From Acidobacteriota bacterium (GTDB lineage Bacteria > Acidobacteriota > Vicinamibacteria > Vicinamibacterales > SCN-69-37), in the NCBI GenBank assembly GCA_016716905.1, contig JADJUS010000003.1, forward strand, positions 723,710 through 787,709: a stretch of DNA of 64,000 nt, read 5' to 3'. A program made the translations under genes and the position numbers. Under the pieces are notes generated by a model, which saw nothing but the letters and a program-made list of their open reading frames with translations, did no database searches and was not told where the DNA came from. This document shows positions 8,489 through 34,574 of the stretch, one piece after another (the stretch's first letter is position 1; each line of letters opens with the position of its first letter).

Positions 8489-9034
8489 GTGATGTCTGAG
8501 GAACTGCTCACCGAGCGGTTGATCCTGCGGCGTCCGGCGCTTGCTGACGCGCAAGCGATCTTCGACCGGTATGCCAGCGATCCCGAGGTGACGCGATATC
8601 TGGCGTGGCCAACTCATCGATCGCTCGCGGATACGGAAGCCTTCCTCGCGTTCAGCGACAGCGAGTGGGCCAGGTGGCCTGCCGGGCCGTTGCTCGCGTT
8701 CCTCAAGTCCGATGGCCGGCTGGTCGGAAGTACAGGGTTGGGGTTCGAATCGCTCCATGAGGCTTCGACCGGTTTCGTGCTGGCCAGGGACGCTTGGGGG
8801 CAGGGGTACGCCACTGAGATCGCGACGGTGATGGTGGAGTTGGCCGCGGCCCTTGGCGTGGGGCGCCTGAAGGCCTTCTGTCACCACGGGCACGTGGCGT
8901 CCCGACGGGTCCTGGAAAAGGCTGCCTTCAGGCAAGAGGGTGTATTGCCCAGGCACGTGGTCTTTCCGAATCTTTCCGCAGATCCGCAGGACGTCTGTTT
9001 GTACAGATTCGAGCCTGGAGCGTCTCCGTCGTGA
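8489..9034 (+). CDS. GNAT (RimJ/RimL-type) N-acetyltransferase
   Basis: TERLILR, WGQGYATE (R/Q-x-x-G-x-A acetyl-CoA loop), ASRRVLEK-x-x-F-x-x-EG. Confidence 0.88.
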   Translation: MMSEELLTERLILRRPALADAQAIFDRYASDPEVTRYLAWPTHRSLADTEAFLAFSDSEWARWPAGPLLAFLKSDGRLVGSTGLGFESLHEASTGFVLARDAWGQGYATEIATVMVELAAALGVGRLKAFCHHGHVASRRVLEKAAFRQEGVLPRHVVFPNLSADPQDVCLYRFEPGASPS

Positions 9035-9969
9035 GCGAGACGACGTACGCGGAGATTCATCGCCGGCTGGCTGGTCTTGCGAACCCGGCGCAGGCCGCGT
9101 TCGCCCAGCGCTTTTTCAAGACGGGAAAAGGCGAGTATGGTGAAGGCGATCGCTTCCTCGGCATCCGGGTGCCCGTGATCCGGGCTGTCGTGCGGGCCTA
9201 TCCCGCGCCTCCACTGGCCACGGTGGTGAAACTGCTGAGGTCGCAGTGGCACGAAGAGCGCCTGCTGGCCGTGCTGATGCTCGTTCGCCTCTATGACAAG
9301 GGCGGGCCAGCGGAGCGCGAGGCGGTGTACCGGCTCTATCTGGACTCTCTCACGTTCATCAACAACTGGGACATCGTGGACTCGTCCGCTTCGCAGATCG
9401 TGGGGCGCCACCTTGCCGGTCGCGGACGATTCCCGTTGCTGCGCATGGCCAGGTCGCCTCACCTCTGGACGCGTCGCGTATCCGTCATCGCCACGGCGCA
9501 CGGCATTCGGCACGGCCACTTTGACGACATCCTCCTTCTGGCCTCGCGGCTGCTGGACGACAAGGAGGATCTCATTCACAAAGCGGTCGGCTGGATGCTG
9601 CGGGAAGTCGGCAAGCGTGATCGATCCGTGCTGGAAGACTTCCTCGACACCCACGCCGCGCGCATGCCGAGGACGATGCTGAGGTATGCGATTGAGAAAT
9701 TGCCGGCAGATCGGCGCCAGCGGTACATGAAAGACAAAACCCGCGGCCTTGAGGAACAGGCCGCGCTACGAGAGCAGCTGAACACTTCCTCAGTTCCTCC
9801 CAGTTCCCCAGTTCCCCAGTTCCCCAGTTCCCCTGGACTCTGGACCCTGGACTCTGGACTACTTGCGCCGTTGGCGGGCGCGCTCGAGGGCTTCGCGAAG
9901 CTTCGGTTCGAGGCCGCGGTCGGTGGGCTCGTAGTAGCGTCGGTGGGCGAGGGCGTCGGGGAGGCATGA
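9031..9969 (+). CDS. DNA alkylation repair protein (AlkD-like HEAT-repeat family) with a read-through C-terminal extension
   Basis: FFKTGKGEYGEGD-x-FLG, NNWDIVD, DLIHKAVGWMLRE-x-GKR, RTMLRYAIEK. The last ~75 aa run across a tandem-repeat array and antisense into rarA. Confidence 0.82.
   Translation: MSETTYAEIHRRLAGLANPAQAAFAQRFFKTGKGEYGEGDRFLGIRVPVIRAVVRAYPAPPLATVVKLLRSQWHEERLLAVLMLVRLYDKGGPAEREAVYRLYLDSLTFINNWDIVDSSASQIVGRHLAGRGRFPLLRMARSPHLWTRRVSVIATAHGIRHGHFDDILLLASRLLDDKEDLIHKAVGWMLREVGKRDRSVLEDFLDTHAARMPRTMLRYAIEKLPADRRQRYMKDKTRGLEEQAALREQLNTSSVPPSSPVPQFPSSPGLWTLDSGLLAPLAGALEGFAKLRFEAAVGGLVVASVGEGVGEA
9783..9860. repeat. Compound short tandem repeat: (CAGTTCCC)x4 plus 2 degenerate copies, then (CTGGAC[T/C])x4
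   Basis: Exact octamers at 9801, 9809, 9817, 9825; heptamers at 9833, 9840, 9847, 9854. The last heptamer overlaps the rarA stop. Confidence 0.92.
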
Positions 9970-11199: not shown

Positions 11200-12002
11200 C
11201 GGCTGTTCCGCTGCAGGCGCGCCTCGTACAACAGCAGCGCAGACGAGACGGCCACGTTGAACGAGTTGATACCGGGGCGCATCGCGATGCTGATCTGAAT
11301 GTCGGCGGCTTTGAGGGCCTGGCCGGGGAGCCCCGCGCCTTCGTTGCCAAGCAGCAGGAACACCGGGCCGGTCAGGTCTACAGCGTGCAGGTCGGTGGTC
11401 CCGGGAGCAGGCGCCGTGGTTGCCGCGATTGTTGCCCCGGCGGCGCGTGCGGCCCGCAAGCTCTCCCCGATCGACGCCCGGGCCACCGGTACACGAAATG
11501 TGCTGCCCATCGCGCCCCGCAAGGACTTGGCTGACCCGGGATCGGCCGTGGCGCCAATCATGGCCACGCCGGTGGCGCCCAGACCGTCTGCCGACCGAAT
11601 CACCGCGCCGGCATTGCCGGGGTCCTGCACGTCCACCAATCCGATCACGAGTGCTGGCGCGGGCGTCCACAGCGCTGCCAGCGGCGCCGGCGACCATCGG
11701 GCGATCGCCACAACGCCGCTCGGTGTGCGCACAGGGCTGGCGGCTTCAATGACGCCCGTGGTGGCTTCATGAACGGGCACGTCCGCGGCCCGCGCCAGTT
11801 CCCAGGCTTCCACCACGTCCATGGATGCATCAGCCAGGAGGTCGCTCGTGGCCAGCACGATCTCGACGGGCACGCCCGCCCTGAGCGCATCCAGCAGGAG
11901 GTGCACTCCGTCGATCACCACAGCCCCATCGTCGGCCGCACCCTTTGCGACATCGCGGAAGCGCGTCACGATGGCGTCCTGGCGACGTGTGATGCGGGGC
12001 AC
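11196..12002 (-). CDS. TrmH/SpoU-family RNA 2'-O-methyltransferase
   Basis: VQDPGN-x-GA-x-x-RS, GAMGS, LLGNEG-x-GL, SFNVAVS (SPOUT motifs). Start uncertain (GTG at 12002 chosen). Confidence 0.88.
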   Translation of the reverse strand: MPRITRRQDAIVTRFRDVAKGAADDGAVVIDGVHLLLDALRAGVPVEIVLATSDLLADASMDVVEAWELARAADVPVHEATTGVIEAASPVRTPSGVVAIARWSPAPLAALWTPAPALVIGLVDVQDPGNAGAVIRSADGLGATGVAMIGATADPGSAKSLRGAMGSTFRVPVARASIGESLRAARAAGATIAATTAPAPGTTDLHAVDLTGPVFLLLGNEGAGLPGQALKAADIQISIAMRPGINSFNVAVSSALLLYEARLQRNSR

Positions 12003-29527: not shown

Positions 29528-30169
29528 TTACGCCTGTTTGTGGACAACCCCCGTGCCGTGAAGCCGATCCCCAAAGTCTCCCAGGCCCGGTGCGATGAAC
29601 TTCTGGAGATTCAGTTCCCGGTCAAGCGCCGGAGAATAGACCGCCACATCCGGGTGGGCCCGTTCCACGGCCTCCACGCCCTCGGGGGCCGCGACGATGG
29701 AGAGCAGGCGGATGGCGCGGGCGCCAGCGGCCTTGAGGATGTCGATGGCCATGATCGCCGAACCGCCGGTGGCGAGCATCGGGTCCACAAGCAAAATCAG
29801 GCTGCTGGACAGGCCCTCCGGCAGGTGCCCTGAATACTGATGGGCCTGGGCGGTGTGCTCGTCGCGCCGCAGGCCGATATGACCGACCCGTGCCTGCGGC
29901 AGGAAATTCAGCACTGGATCAACCAGGCACAATCCGGCGCGCAGGACCGCCACCACCACCACGTCACCTGCGATCGCCTGTCCGGTGGTCATTTCGAGCG
30001 GCGTCTGGACGGAGACCTCGGTGGTCGGCAGATCCTTCGTGGCTTCGGCCGCGATGATGAGACCGATGCGATGTGCCAGTTGCCGAAACTCGGCGGGCTG
30101 CGTGGTGGCGTCACGCAACGCGATCAGGGCATGCTGCGCAACGGGGTGTGCGACGAGGTGGAATGACAC
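29528..30169 (-). CDS. upp: Uracil phosphoribosyltransferase
   Basis: LRD-x-x-T-x-x-x-EFR, VLRAG, IG-x-x-RDE-x-T, VDPMLATGGS, PGLGDFGDR. Confidence 0.95.
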   Translation of the reverse strand: MSFHLVAHPVAQHALIALRDATTQPAEFRQLAHRIGLIIAAEATKDLPTTEVSVQTPLEMTTGQAIAGDVVVVAVLRAGLCLVDPVLNFLPQARVGHIGLRRDEHTAQAHQYSGHLPEGLSSSLILLVDPMLATGGSAIMAIDILKAAGARAIRLLSIVAAPEGVEAVERAHPDVAVYSPALDRELNLQKFIAPGLGDFGDRLHGTGVVHKQA

Positions 30170-30175
30170 CGGGAA

Positions 30176-30206
30176 ACTATACACCTGCGGTTCCGGCCGA
30201 TAGAAT
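30176..30206. promoter_or_regulatory. Divergent -10 boxes for leaderless transcripts of upp (TATAGT, - strand) and the deaminase (TAGAAT, + strand)
   Basis: Hexamers end 6 nt before the GTG at 30169 and 7 nt before the ATG at 30214; no Shine-Dalgarno for either. Confidence 0.5.
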
Positions 30207-30213
30207 CCCAGTC

Positions 30214-31632
30214 ATGAAGCGTTCGGCGTGGGTGGCAGTGGTCCTGTTCGCGATTGTGGCGGGCCTGGCGTGGCAGCGGACGCAGCCCGGGGACCGCGCG
30301 TCCATTTCGCTGCTCGTCACCGGAGGCACGGTGGTGACCATGGACGCGGCCGGCACGGTGGTGCCCGACGGTGCGGTCGCGATCGATGGCACGACGATCG
30401 TGGCGATCGGAACGGCCGCCGACCTGGACGCGCGGTATCAGGCTCGCGAGCGCATCGATGCCCGCGGCCAGGTCATCATGCCGGGCCTCATCAACACCCA
30501 CACACATGCGCCAATGGTCCTCTTTCGGGGGCTTGCCGATGACCTGGCGCTGATGGACTGGTTGACGCAGTACATCTTCCCCGCGGAGAAGGCCACGGTC
30601 TCACCCGAGTTCGTGCGCGTCGGCACGCGGCTGGCTCTGCTGGAAATGATTGAGTCGGGCACCACGACGTATGCCGACATGTATTACTTCGAGGAAGAGA
30701 TTGCCGCAGTCACCAAGGCCGCGGGCGTACGCGGGGTGCTCGGCCAGACCATCATCAGGTTCCCTGTGGCAGACGCCGCGACCCCCGAAGAAGGGCTCGC
30801 GCGTTCAGAGACGTTTCTGACTCAGTGGGCGAACGATCCGCTCATCGTGCCGGCGGTCGCGCCGCACGCGCCGTATACGCTGACACCCGAGACACTGAAG
30901 GCGGCGCGCGCGCTGGCGGACAAATATCGTGCGCCGCTTTTGATCCACCTGGCGGAGACGCGCGACGAGGTGGGCATCATTGCCGGACAGTTCAAGCTGT
31001 CGCCGGCGATGTTCCTCGACAGTCTGGGATTCTGGGGCGGCCGCTCACTCGCCGCACATGCGGTGTGGGTGGATGAGGCCGACATGAAGATGCTGGCCGC
31101 GCGTGGCGTCGGTCTCTCCCACAATCCCGAGAGCAATATGAAGCTGGCCTCTGGCACGGCACCGGTGACGGGCTGGTTGAGCGCCGGAATCCCGGCGGGG
31201 CTGGGCACCGATGGCGCCGCCAGCAATAACGACCTGGACATGTTCGAGGCCGTGCGCACAGCAGCGCTCCTCCATAAACATGCCACCGGCGACCCACGGG
31301 CGATGCCCGCCAGACAGGCGCTGGAACTGGCCACGCGTCGCGGCGCCGCCGCGCTGGGACTTGGGGATAGGATTGGCAGTCTGGAGACTGGCAAACTGGC
31401 CGACGTGATCACCGTGTCGATGTCGAGCGCGCGACAAACGCCGCTGTTCGATCCGCTCTCGCACCTTGTCTACGTGACACGGGGCACCGATGTGCGCAAC
31501 ACCATCGTCCACGGGCGGGTGCTGATGCGTCAGGGGCGGGTGATCAGCCTCAACCGTTCGGCTGTTCTCCAGGAAGCGACTGCGATGGCAGAGAAGGTCC
31601 GCGCCGCGGTGTCGCGCAAGGAGGGGCAGTGA
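30214..31632 (+). CDS. MtaD/SsnA-like metal-dependent nucleoside deaminase (amidohydrolase) with an N-terminal signal/anchor
   Basis: PGLINTHTH, SGTTT-x-ADMY, PHAPYT, IHLAET, HNPESN-x-KLASG, LGTDG-x-ASNN-x-LDM, G-x-L-x-x-GK-x-AD. Confidence 0.88.
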   Translation: MKRSAWVAVVLFAIVAGLAWQRTQPGDRASISLLVTGGTVVTMDAAGTVVPDGAVAIDGTTIVAIGTAADLDARYQARERIDARGQVIMPGLINTHTHAPMVLFRGLADDLALMDWLTQYIFPAEKATVSPEFVRVGTRLALLEMIESGTTTYADMYYFEEEIAAVTKAAGVRGVLGQTIIRFPVADAATPEEGLARSETFLTQWANDPLIVPAVAPHAPYTLTPETLKAARALADKYRAPLLIHLAETRDEVGIIAGQFKLSPAMFLDSLGFWGGRSLAAHAVWVDEADMKMLAARGVGLSHNPESNMKLASGTAPVTGWLSAGIPAGLGTDGAASNNDLDMFEAVRTAALLHKHATGDPRAMPARQALELATRRGAAALGLGDRIGSLETGKLADVITVSMSSARQTPLFDPLSHLVYVTRGTDVRNTIVHGRVLMRQGRVISLNRSAVLQEATAMAEKVRAAVSRKEGQ

Positions 31633-32147
31633 GTCACGTGACCCAGTTTCTGGGCGAGGCCGAGATCGCGGAACGCGTCAACGCCGTGGCCGCGGCCATC
31701 CGGGCTGACGCCGGCCCCGATGTGCCCGTTCACCTCGTGGGTGTGCTGAAGGGCGCGTTTATCTTCATGGCGGATCTCATGCGCCAGATCGGCGGCCCGA
31801 TCACGTGTGACTTCATCGCGGTCTCCAGCTACGCAGGCACGGTGTCCACGGGACAAGTCCAGATCCTGAAGGACCTGGACCGATCGATTGATGGCCGGTA
31901 TGTGGTGATCGTTGAAGACATCGTGGACACGGGGCTCACGCTCTCGTATCTGCAGGACGTGTTTCGCACGCGGTCGCCGCGGGCGCTCAAGACGGCGTGC
32001 CTGTTGAGCAAGCCGTCGCGGCGAAAAGTGGACGTGCCAGTGGATTACGTCGGATTCACCATCGACGACCGCTTCGTGGTCGGGTATGGCCTCGATTTCG
32101 ACGAGCAGTATCGCAACCTGCCGTTCATTGGCGTGGTGGGAGAGTAG
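31629..32147 (+). CDS. hpt: Hypoxanthine phosphoribosyltransferase
   Basis: VLKGAF-x-FMADL, VEDIVDTG-x-TL, FVVGYGLDF-x-E-x-YRNLP. Confidence 0.95.
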   Translation: MSHVTQFLGEAEIAERVNAVAAAIRADAGPDVPVHLVGVLKGAFIFMADLMRQIGGPITCDFIAVSSYAGTVSTGQVQILKDLDRSIDGRYVVIVEDIVDTGLTLSYLQDVFRTRSPRALKTACLLSKPSRRKVDVPVDYVGFTIDDRFVVGYGLDFDEQYRNLPFIGVVGE

Positions 32148-32789
32148 ATGGCCGTGCGCAGGTTCTCGATCATCACGGAAGGTGATGCGCGGCAGATCGA
32201 GCCAGGGACCACTGTCGAACTGGACGCGAGGGGCCACGTGACGCCGCTGGCGGCCGATACGCTGCGGGAGCGCCGCGTGACCGTGGTGCCGGCTGGAACC
32301 GCCGACCCTGCGCTGCCTGCGGACCTGTCGCCGATATCGCCTGTGCGCCGCGTCACCATCGGGTCCGACCACACCGGTGTGGCGCTCAAGGCGACGCTGG
32401 TCGCACACCTGCGAAAGTCCGGTCTCGCCGTGTATGACTGCGGCACTGATGGACCCGAGGCGGTGGACTATCCAGACATTGCGGCGGCGGTGGGGAAGAG
32501 TGTCGTGCGAGGGGAAGCCGACGCGGGCATCGTGATCGATGGCGCCGGACTGGGATCGGCGATGGCGGCCAACAAGATCCGCGGCGTGCGAGCGGCGATG
32601 TGTCTGACGGTGACGCTGGCGCGGTATGCGCGTGAACACAATGGCGCGAACGTTCTGGCTCTGGGCGCCACACTGATCACCAGCGCCGAGGCCATCGAGA
32701 TTGTGGACACCTGGTTGAGCACGCCGACGAGGGAACCGCGGTACCTGCGGCGCCTCTTGAAGGTGCGGCGCCTGGAAGAGAGCTTTTAG
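32148..32789 (+). CDS. rpiB: RpiB/LacAB-family sugar-phosphate isomerase with a ~66-aa N-terminal extra domain
   Basis: IGSDH-x-G, VDYPD, AANK-x-x-G-x-RAA, AREHN-x-ANVL; canonical CGTG replaced by DGAG. Confidence 0.8.
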
Positions 32790-33688
32790 TGGACACACAT
32801 ACCGTTGACCTCTCGCGACTGATCGCGATCATCGCCGAAGAGGTGCTGGCCGCGTCGCGGCGTCCCGCGACGAACTGCGACTGCCACTCGGTCAATGAAG
32901 ACTGCTGCCCGACGCGCCTGCAGGGAGCGATCGATGCGGGAGCCGTGCGGTTCGGCGTCCATGCGGTCGGCGGCGCGCCCGACGTGGTCTCGGGGTTGAT
33001 CGACCACACGCTACTCAAACCTGACGCGACGCGGCCCGAGATGGAGAAGTTGTGCCGGGAGGCCGCCGAGTTCCGCTTCGCGACCGTGTGTGTGAATCCG
33101 GCGTGGGTGGCGTTCTGCGCCGCCCAGCTCAGGCACACACCGGTCGGCGTATGCACGGTCGTGGGCTTTCCACTGGGGGCGACCACCTCGGATGTCAAGA
33201 ACTACGAAACGCGCCGCGTGATCTTCGATGGTGCGCGTGAAGTGGACATGGTCATCAACATCGGCGCGCTCAAGAGCGGCGATGTGCGCACGGTGGAGCG
33301 CGACATCGAGGCGGTGACGCAGCCGTGTCGTGACGCGGGCGTGGTGAGCAAAGTGATCATTGAAGCCGCGTACCTCTCCGATGAAGAGAAGGTGACCGCG
33401 TGCACGCTCGCAAAGGCGGCGGGCGCAGACTTCGTCAAGACGTCCACAGGATTCGGTCCAGGCGGTGCGACGGTGGCCGACGTGGCGCTCATGCGCCGTG
33501 TGGTGGGCGCCGACATGGGCGTCAAGGCGGCCGGCGGCGTTCGAGATCTCGAAGGCCTCAAGGCGATGGTGGCGGCCGGCGCCACGCGCGTGGGCGCCAG
33601 CGCCGGCGTCAAGATCGTGCAGCAGTCGCGCAGCGGCGAGCCGGCGGCACCGGCCGCACCGGTGCCCGTCCTCAAGTCCGCGTATTAG
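32789..33688 (+). CDS. deoC: Deoxyribose-phosphate aldolase with a ~65-aa N-terminal extension
   Basis: [35 protein letters not shown] (Schiff-base Lys), [16 protein letters not shown]. Confidence 0.95.
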
Positions 33689-34574
33689 CGTTGTCGGAGA
33701 GCGCCGCTTCCGCGGCCAGGTGACGCGCCAGGGCGTCGCGCTGAGGGAACGGAATCTCGATGCCCGCGCCCTCAAACGCCTTCTTGAGCAAGCGCCGAAA
33801 CTCGCGCGCCGTCTCCCATTGCTTCAGCGGCAGTGTCTTCATGCGGACGCGAATGGTCACCGAGGACTCCCCAAACCCTTCGATGCCAATCACCTCGAGC
33901 GGTTCGAGCATGGCCGGCCCATGTGATGCCGAGAGTCGCATCTGCTCCGAGACGTGCTGCATCACATTCACCACTTCATCGGTATCGTGTTTGTAGGCGA
34001 CCTGAATGTCGAGCAGCGCGTACGCGTAGTCCTTGCTCAGGTTCGCGAGCGTGGTGACGCCGCCACACGGGAACACGTGCACCGCGCCGCTCTGGTCGCG
34101 CAGCACGATGGTGCGCAGGTTGATGGCTTCCACGAGCCCGCCGGTCCCGTTGATCTGGGCGACGTCACCGACGCGCACCTGGTTTTCGAGGATGAGGAAG
34201 AACCCGCCGATGACGTCTTTCACCAACGTCTGCGCACCGAACCCCACGGCGAGGCCCAGGATGCCCGCGCCGGTGAGGATAGGCATGATGTTGATTCGCA
34301 ACTCCTGAAGGACCATCAGCGTCGCGACTGCCGCGATCAATACGCCGGCGACGTTGCGGAGCAGGTTGCCCAGGGTCTTCGCACGTTTGCCGGATTCGCT
34401 TCCGTTGGGGTCGTGTCCGTCGGCCAGGTACTGTTCAAGCCGCCTGACGCCCGCGCGCATAAAGCGGAGCACCAGAAGCGCGAGAAGGACGACCAGCAGG
34501 ATGCGGACCGCCGCGCCGAGTGACGTCACCGCCCACGCAGGCGTCTGGGCAACGATCCGGTTTAGAAACTCCAT
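33672..34574 (-). CDS. MscS-family small-conductance mechanosensitive channel
   Basis: [19 protein letters not shown]-x-VE-x-INLR-x-x-x-LR, AGIEIPFPQ. Confidence 0.9.

Follow-up and report, generated by a model that had tools for sequence, protein, structure and literature searches.

Bacterial microcompartments (BMCs) of the sugar-phosphate-utilisation (SPU) type contain a deoxyribose-phosphate aldolase (DERA) and a ribose-5-phosphate isomerase (RPI) with distinctive sequence features. According to the study that describes them, the SPU DERA has an N-terminal extension of about 70 residues, headed by an amphipathic helix, which non-BMC DERAs lack and gene callers often overlook, and all SPU RPIs carry Asp in place of Cys66 (PMC11585597). 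The same study reports that the RPI of a Chloroflexi SPU6 locus has negligible ribose-5-phosphate isomerase activity and forms an approximately 1:1 complex with DERA, and that the Chloroflexi DERA is soluble once the 70-residue extension is removed (PMC11585597). We analysed a 64,000-nucleotide stretch of an Acidobacteriota genome (GenBank assembly GCA_016716905.1, contig JADJUS010000003.1, positions 723,710 to 787,709; hereafter the window), in which the adjacent genes rpiB and deoC encode an RPI paralog with Asp in place of the catalytic Cys and a DERA with a 66-residue N-terminal extension. The pair therefore bears both published sequence hallmarks of SPU cargo. It is likely that rpiB and deoC form a detached cargo module of a BMC that the same genome encodes on other contigs.

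Two other described systems are close to this locus. The ACI type occurs in Acidobacteria of subdivisions 4 and 6, and according to the BMC catalogue it has a class II aldolase with a C-terminal encapsulation peptide, a BMC-P triplet, an aldehyde dehydrogenase (AldDh) that is always in a satellite locus, and an unknown function (PMC8217296). It is among the larger of the new BMC types, with 125 loci, and belongs to abundant soil bacteria. For HO-type genomes, the same catalogue mentions remote PF01791 aldolases with encapsulation-peptide-like N-termini and proposes that they are encapsulated (PMC8217296). BMC surveys gather genes only within about 12 open reading frames (ORFs) of a shell gene and therefore cannot see cargo that is encoded farther away. 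The DERA extension and the RPI variant of SPU (2024), as well as the idea of remote PF01791 cargo bearing encapsulation peptides (2021), are already known. New, as far as the accessible SPU and ACI literature goes, is the presence of an SPU-type pair, probably as detached cargo, in a nucleobase-salvage operon of ACI-like Vicinamibacterales. The invariant Cys/His cluster of the extension, the likeness of the extension to the beta8 region of the barrel, and a module common to RPI, AldDh and, elsewhere, DERA were also not found in that literature.

The two genes and their parts are the following.

32789-33688, plus strand: deoC, encoding a 299-residue DERA with a 66-residue N-terminal extension (ORF; Pfam, TIGR00126 and PDB matches)
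32807-32857, plus strand: encapsulation-peptide-like amphipathic helix, residues 7-23 (AlphaFold2 (AF2) helix at 8-23, conservation, hydrophobic moment)
32876-32911, plus strand: Cys/His cluster C30-x-C32-H33-x5-C39-C40-P41, a candidate metal/redox site (conservation)
32912-32962, plus strand: second predicted helix, residues 42-58, with the x-x-AGA-x-R-x-G motif (G46-56) (AF2 helix at 41-54, hhalign)
32987-33634, plus strand: DERA TIM barrel, residues 67-282 (match to 6d33; AF2 pLDDT 85-96)
33635-33685, plus strand: variable Pro/Ala-rich C-terminal tail ending in conserved K-S-A-Y (homolog alignment)
32148-32789, plus strand: SPU-type RpiB paralog of 213 residues, with N-terminal module, linker and RpiB core (PF02502 at residues 69-205)
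32160-32291, plus strand: small alpha/beta module, RpiB residues 5-48 (IT-x-x-D...G...VTPLA-x-D; hhalign to the C-terminal module of AldDh)

The Pfam DeoC family (PF01791) matched residues 71-278 of the 299-residue product, and TIGR00126, the NCBIfam deoC equivalog, matched residues 69-278 with 263 bits, the cut-off being 117. Alignments to solved DERAs begin at residue 67, the best being 6d33 (phmmer E = 4.4e-76, residues 67-282). Because all three cover only the part from about residue 67 onward, residues 1-66 precede an ordinary DERA barrel as an extra part. By motif, D153, K217 and K246 appear to correspond to the catalytic D102, K167 and K201 of E. coli DERA; an alignment of 25 homologs shows no variation at D153 and K217 and at least 90% conservation of K246. 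The last residue, Y299, is near-invariant among the aligned homologs. In E. coli DERA, the terminal Tyr reaches into the active site. There is no other DERA gene in the genome, and the deoC of the window is thus its sole copy.

An earlier note on this DNA had pointed out the amphipathic helix, the C-x-C-H-x5-C-C motif, the segment G46-56 and the C-terminal segment A259-269, and every one of these motifs is present in the ORF. Sixteen residues of the extension (D7, L8, L11, E18, V19, C30, C32, H33, E37, D38, C40, P41, A50, A52, R54 and G56) are invariant among the 25 aligned homologs and C39 is at least 90% conserved. The pattern is preserved in about 150 distinct N-extension sequences, and every top homolog keeps the extension, down to about 77% overall identity. 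Against three relatives of the same order, dN/dS was 0.26-0.54 for the extension and 0.13-0.16 for the barrel, figures that are rough because dS is near saturation. On these sequence comparisons, the extension is under purifying selection. The best 12-residue hydrophobic moment of the helix was 0.58, within the range of 0.54-0.87 computed for Pdu and Eut encapsulation peptides. AF2 predicted two low-confidence helices, at residues 8-23 and at 41-54, and gave no confident fold for the extension (pLDDT 47-66, about 50 at the Cys cluster). Unlike the free linker of a canonical encapsulation peptide, the approximately 35 residues after the helix, which include the Cys cluster and AGAxRxG, are conserved. 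In a genome of the same family (G028), the helix alone is retained and a plain linker replaces the Cys cluster. Elsewhere in Acidobacteriota the number of Cys residues at the cluster position ranges from one to five and is often four, with none in G165, and the x-x-AGA-x-R-x-G motif is retained phylum-wide, for example as VDAGAARIG or IGADRIS.

The suggestion that the extension echoes the C-terminus of the enzyme itself was borne out by hhalign, in which columns 43-63 of the extension profile aligned with the last helix and strand of the barrel (AGAtRiGaSaG; probability 78.5%, E = 1.7e-5). The segment resembles alpha8/beta8 of the barrel, and a PDB profile search also weakly matched the same DERA segment. 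Searches of Pfam, NCBIfam and PDB with the 68-residue extension, by sequence and by profile, assigned it to no family. Matches to designed armadillo repeats were based only on the words 'QAVIDAGA' and were rejected as chance. When 1.84 billion representative proteins were searched with a profile of the extension to see whether other enzymes carry it, nearly all matches with recognisable flanks were DeoC fragments or frameshifted RpiB-DeoC junctions. The sole exception, P0259, is a 298-residue metagenomic protein in which the helix, C-R-C-H...CCP and DAGATRL are joined to a HisA-like barrel exactly at AGAxRL. The fusion could have arisen by natural recombination at the strand-like motif or by chimeric assembly; as it is probably chimeric, it was not accepted as a case of the extension on a non-DERA enzyme.

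In the RpiB paralog, the motif IVIDGAGLG has Asp131 in place of the catalytic Cys, and D131 is invariant in 22 homologs. A canonical RpiB without extension is encoded at C22:411434-411997 and keeps the Cys (VLVCGSGIG), and no RpiA was found in the genome. The N-terminal module of the paralog was related to the C-terminal module of a shell-adjacent AldDh (G000:C14:107421-107732; L013, about 11560-11720) by hhalign at 96.3% probability (E = 1.5e-9). A direct link between the two was not obtained with phmmer, and a profile-profile comparison was needed. Within the genome, this module of about 45 residues is restricted to the RpiB paralog and the AldDh. AF2 folds the RpiB module as beta-alpha-hairpin-alpha-beta with pLDDT 73-88; it had no significant match in a PDB search and no Pfam match. 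An order-wide search with the AldDh C-terminus recovered the AldDh gene in most genomes, and its weak second matches lay just upstream of deoC, with coordinates checked in G157 and G238. The search also matched RpiB-length frames in five further genomes. In G142 and G235, which belong to two other acidobacterial families, the module is fused directly ahead of the DeoC extension. Common to RpiB and AldDh, the module connects the operon with the shell-adjacent AldDh by evidence other than the DeoC helix.

The earlier note had seen no shell gene in the 64 kb, and PF00936 and PF03319 matches proved to be absent from the whole contig of the window (C3). It had named such shell genes, and an aldehyde dehydrogenase bearing an encapsulation peptide, as what should be sought in the rest of the genome. 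Shell genes were found there, with matches on contigs C22, C14 and C8, and so was an extension-bearing acylating AldDh adjoining a BMC-H gene. At C22:792056-794080, a class II aldolase (PF00596), one BMC-H, three BMC-P and a small ORF are surrounded by housekeeping genes. The aldolase ends in an amphipathic C-terminal tail, LTYGELTTLIEGAVRHL, and the tail ...LTYGELTTLIEGAVRHLTARTMA is conserved. On C14, a BMC-H gene lies 78 nt upstream of the gene for the acylating AldDh of 572 residues, whose best family is the acetaldehyde dehydrogenase TIGR02518 (577 bits, slightly below the cut-off). A third BMC-H gene (G000:C22:1159338-1159565; L014, 9309-9602) directly follows a hisF/hisA-like run in a histidine-biosynthesis cluster, and no cargo gene was found near it. 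An apparent second shell locus on C8 (18.8 kb) was rejected, as this contig is 96-97% identical to C22:766874-775809 and C22:789480-795655. C8 is a co-assembled strain variant and therefore doubled the apparent BMC-P count to six instead of three. No BMC-T was found in the genome.

The small ORF downstream of the BMC-P triplet (L011, about 8700-9050, minus strand; L015, 11130-11366) has an encapsulation-peptide-like N-terminal helix, NEAELRSLVRTAVARHL, followed by a linker and a C-terminal C-x8-C-x2-C-x2-C. By these motifs, its product is a candidate for an Fe-S or metal protein that is encapsulated. The two halves of the C22 copy are in different frames, owing to a frameshift or an assembly error.

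The association between the extension and shell genes was examined across 301 evenly sampled genomes of the phylum, of which 29 matched a profile of the extension, 161 had BMC-P and 193 had DeoC. All 29 profile-matching genomes had BMC-P, compared with 161 of 301 overall (Fisher's exact test: p = 3.6e-9 over all genomes and 3.1e-7 among those with DeoC). The profile detects close variants only; therefore, the in-frame upstream sequences of 56 further DeoC genes were read. In the resulting set of 57 DeoC genes, which includes that of the window and in which the extension was judged from in-frame upstream sequence and not from start codons, the extension was present on 42 of the 43 from BMC-P-positive genomes but on three of the 14 from BMC-P-negative ones (Fisher's exact test: p = 2e-8). 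These 42 extensions are helix-first, and most have the Cys cluster and the x-x-AGA-x-R-x-G segment. Twelve of the DeoC genes concerned sit within about 3 kb of BMC-P genes. In G079, for example, the gene order is BMC-P, RpiB, BMC-P, BMC-P, DeoC; in G131, an extension-bearing DeoC is accompanied by AldDh and further shell genes; and in G197 and G297 the DeoC within the shell operon has the helix, CxC and GVDRxG. Within-genus contrasts (G197 against G156, G297 against G085) showed that the shell-less member lacks the extension, and BMC-H was also absent from G085 and G156 on checking. Sister contrasts on the tree (G242 against G212 and G139, G229 against G014) went in the same direction. The DeoC tree mostly tracks the species phylogeny with an unresolved backbone, and it did not show a single 'BMC-type' DERA clade. 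In G149, DeoC and the BMC-P triplet are 506 kb apart on one contig.

The locus resembles SPU in its helix-first DERA extension, the RPI Cys-to-Asp replacement, the order RPI then DERA, and an acetaldehyde-type acylating AldDh in the genome (PMC11585597, PMC8217296). The invariant C-x-C-H-x5-C-C-P seen here was not found in the accessible SPU description, and the RPI of the window has a folded module of about 45 residues in place of the simple helix and linker given there (PMC11585597). An SPU locus is defined by BMC-H, BMC-P and AldDh in the same locus, whereas the locus in the window is without shell gene, AldDh or regulator and the pair stands in a nucleobase-salvage operon. A further difference is that neither BMC-T nor PduL was found in this genome.

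The likeness to ACI is one of host and of gene content. By the names of homologs and loci, the host belongs to the Vicinamibacterales, an acidobacterial order that we take to be equivalent to Acidobacteria subdivision 6. On C22, a class II aldolase with a C-terminal encapsulation peptide adjoins BMC-H and the BMC-P triplet, and AldDh with BMC-H lies apart from this triplet, on C14. On four contigs with the identical BMC-H, the genes called up to 10 kb from it did not include the hydroxyacid dehydrogenase of ACI (PF00389/PF02826), for which no genome-wide search was made. DERA and RPI are not linked to ACI in the accessible text of the catalogue (PMC8217296). The SPU-type DERA-RPI pair is a candidate second aldehyde-generating cargo of an ACI-like organelle, as judged from gene content and sequence.

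With the remote aldolases of HO-type genomes, the window shares a DeoC-type aldolase that is away from the shell locus and has an encapsulation-peptide-like N-terminal extension. The hosts there are Myxococcota and the shell type is another one; the present analysis also covers the partner RPI, its module in common with AldDh, and the phyletic association. The Pdu and Eut peptides (PduP, PduD, EutC, EutE) are likewise terminal amphipathic helices, about 17 residues long and hydrophobic at positions i, i+3, i+4 and i+7. Their helix is followed by a short, poorly conserved linker, while after that of DeoC come a conserved Cys cluster and a second conserved helix or strand; the DeoC helix resembles theirs without sequence homology.

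These observations suggest the following scheme. DeoC would be an active-type DERA whose N-terminal extension is an SPU-type encapsulation extension. Its amphipathic helix may drive co-aggregation with core enzymes, docking to shell tiles, or both, and the Cys cluster and strand-like AGAxRxG segment would be accessory parts of the extension domain. The co-translated RpiB paralog, with Asp for the catalytic Cys, is probably an adaptor that binds DERA as in the Chloroflexi pair, and its N-terminal module may also associate with the AldDh bearing the same module. The shell would be made of the one BMC-P triplet and the three BMC-H proteins encoded on other contigs. Inside it, deoxyribose-5-phosphate would be cleaved into glyceraldehyde-3-phosphate plus acetaldehyde, and the acylating AldDh would convert acetaldehyde to acetyl-CoA. 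DeoB, whose gene (deoB, phosphopentomutase) is present elsewhere in the genome, would supply deoxyribose-5-phosphate, so that base salvage and removal of the deoxyribose moiety would be linked through the operon. Encapsulation, the adaptor role of RpiB, the pathway flux and metal binding are what we infer from sequence features, conservation, phyletic association with shell genes, module homology and gene content.

Several points weigh against this reading. The data are phylogenetically clustered and hence represent few independent events. G157 has shells and a DeoC without extension, and four shell-bearing genomes of the same order (family f3) and G198 have no DeoC, which means that DERA is not an obligatory cargo of the shell type. 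No PduL-type phosphotransacylase was found in the genome. As this is the sole DERA copy, any cytosolic need for the enzyme would conflict with its full sequestration. AF2 confidence is low for the extension, and its post-helix region is conserved, unlike the textbook linker of an encapsulation peptide. What can be said of encapsulation in this lineage comes entirely from genes and sequence comparison. Finally, G036, G052 and G172, a sister lineage, have no BMC-H or BMC-P, yet carry a related extension with helix and two Cys; two of these genomes are single-contig and all three are 99-100% complete by estimate. The conserved segment upstream of their DeoC (L035 in G036, L065 in G052 and L063 in G172) reads LLDLTAELRARL...LLGCxExxCL. 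The extension of these three may be orphaned cargo or may have a shell-independent role. The earlier note had offered two scenarios for the pair. An orphaned cargo set that condenses without a shell is inapplicable to this genome, which has shell genes, and the three shell-less genomes suggest that it is possible elsewhere. A satellite cargo locus of a distant shell operon, in contrast, is favoured by the shell genes and the extension-bearing AldDh beside BMC-H, the Cys-to-Asp replacement of RpiB, the extensions of shell-operon DeoCs and the phyletic tracking.

The same three shell-less genomes, together with G157, count in favour of an explanation in which no shell takes part: the extension would be a self-association or redox/metal-regulated domain by which DERA with RPI oligomerises or condenses in the cytosol or is tuned in activity, and the correlation with BMC genes would reflect shared ancestry. 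The invariance of the Cys/His residues is in line with such a role. It is also known that encapsulation peptides alone can drive condensation (PMC12339742), and the gain of solubility of the Chloroflexi DERA on deletion of the extension is compatible with it (PMC11585597). We nevertheless hold this explanation to be unlikely: the extension is found on 42 of 43 DeoCs of shell-bearing genomes and three of 14 of shell-less ones, shell genes and extension are lost together in the pairs G197/G156 and G297/G085, the same extension is present on DeoCs inside shell operons, and G028 keeps the helix while losing the Cys cluster. Alternatively, the pair may derive from SPU and now serve as ordinary cytosolic enzymes of nucleoside salvage, with the extension as a leftover that targets nothing. 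Its place in a deaminase-hpt operon distant from the shell genes, the lack of another DERA, and the same-order genomes that retain shells without DeoC all fit a vestigial tag. A leftover would hardly be expected to show dN/dS below 1 and 16 invariant residues in homologs down to about 77% identity; moreover, the RPI retains its non-catalytic Asp and the module common to the BMC AldDh, while housekeeping is already covered by the canonical RpiB, and we regard this alternative as quite improbable.

The extension might also be an artefact of annotation, with translation starting at V66 and untranslated intergenic sequence upstream, as in the gene call of the genome itself (P0087), which gives 234 residues from V66 and omits the extension. 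Against this, more than 150 homologs were called at full length, many with ATG at the same position, the conservation is at the amino-acid level with synonymous exceeding non-synonymous change, and the GTG start of deoC and the stop of rpiB share one base (TAGTG). Omission of this very extension from gene calls has been described for SPU (PMC11585597). An artefact is therefore very hard to credit.

Returning to detached cargo, the motifs of the extension could be used for genome-wide discovery of other cargo of this kind. A conserved, tagged DERA-RPI pair that tracks shell genes, and whose RPI has a module in common with the shell-linked AldDh, also provides a testable hypothesis on the substrate of ACI: it would be deoxyribose-5-phosphate released when nucleosides or DNA are turned over. 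Whether metabolosome assembly is under metal or redox control, a question raised in work on condensation (PMC12339742), could be approached through the conserved Cys cluster next to the targeting helix. A more far-reaching proposal, which we find doubtful, is that the Cys/His cluster is a metal site (Zn or Fe-S) or a thiol-redox site and either controls cargo condensation or encapsulation or passes electrons on; that, with the AGAxRxG mimic and the RPI/AldDh module, it builds a DERA-RPI-AldDh channeling core; and that the ACI-type organelle is partly deoxyribose-burning, one shell serving both the class II aldolase and DERA. If true, soil and wastewater Acidobacteria would have an organelle fed from a nucleobase-salvage operon.

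The remaining genes of the operon and its divergent neighbour are the following.

29528-30184, minus strand: upp, uracil phosphoribosyltransferase, divergent from the operon (PF14681, E = 2.3e-65)
30214-31632, plus strand: TRZ/ATZ (MtaD/DadD-like) amidohydrolase/deaminase, the first gene of the operon (PF01979, E = 7.8e-69)
31629-32147, plus strand: hpt-like phosphoribosyltransferase (PF00156, E = 3.1e-27)

The start of the amidohydrolase gene was taken from the 472-residue gene calls on contigs that bear an identical DeoC. Its best NCBIfam matches, PRK09045 and 5'-deoxyadenosine deaminase, were both under cut-off. The stop of the amidohydrolase gene and the start of hpt overlap by 4 nt, and the whole series deaminase-hpt-rpiB-deoC has abutting or overlapping stop and start codons. 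Gene order and overlaps thus agree with the coupling of rpiB-deoC to deaminase and hpt, with upp divergent, that the earlier note had described. The same arrangement recurs in relatives with 69-83% DeoC identity; the contigs concerned measure 2.9 and 5.1 Mb, and no shell gene comes closer than 10 kb to the operon there. In a metatranscriptome, three low-depth perfect fragments covered parts of hpt (including 31650-31938) and deoC, with none over the extension, which is weak evidence of transcription and has no bearing on the start codon.

At its 3' end, deoC shares 17 nt (33672-33688) with a convergent mscS-family gene (33672-34574, minus strand), and no terminator-like site was seen downstream of deoC on the plus strand. 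In the assembly, contig C20 (38.4 kb) has a G+C content of 25%, compared with 65% for the genome, and is almost certainly foreign, being contamination or a mobile element. The divergent position of upp is retained in relatives. In two of them (L102, 5868-6692; L103, 5911-6738), a citrate-synthase-family gene of about 275 codons adjoins upp, where the window has a cyclophilin gene.

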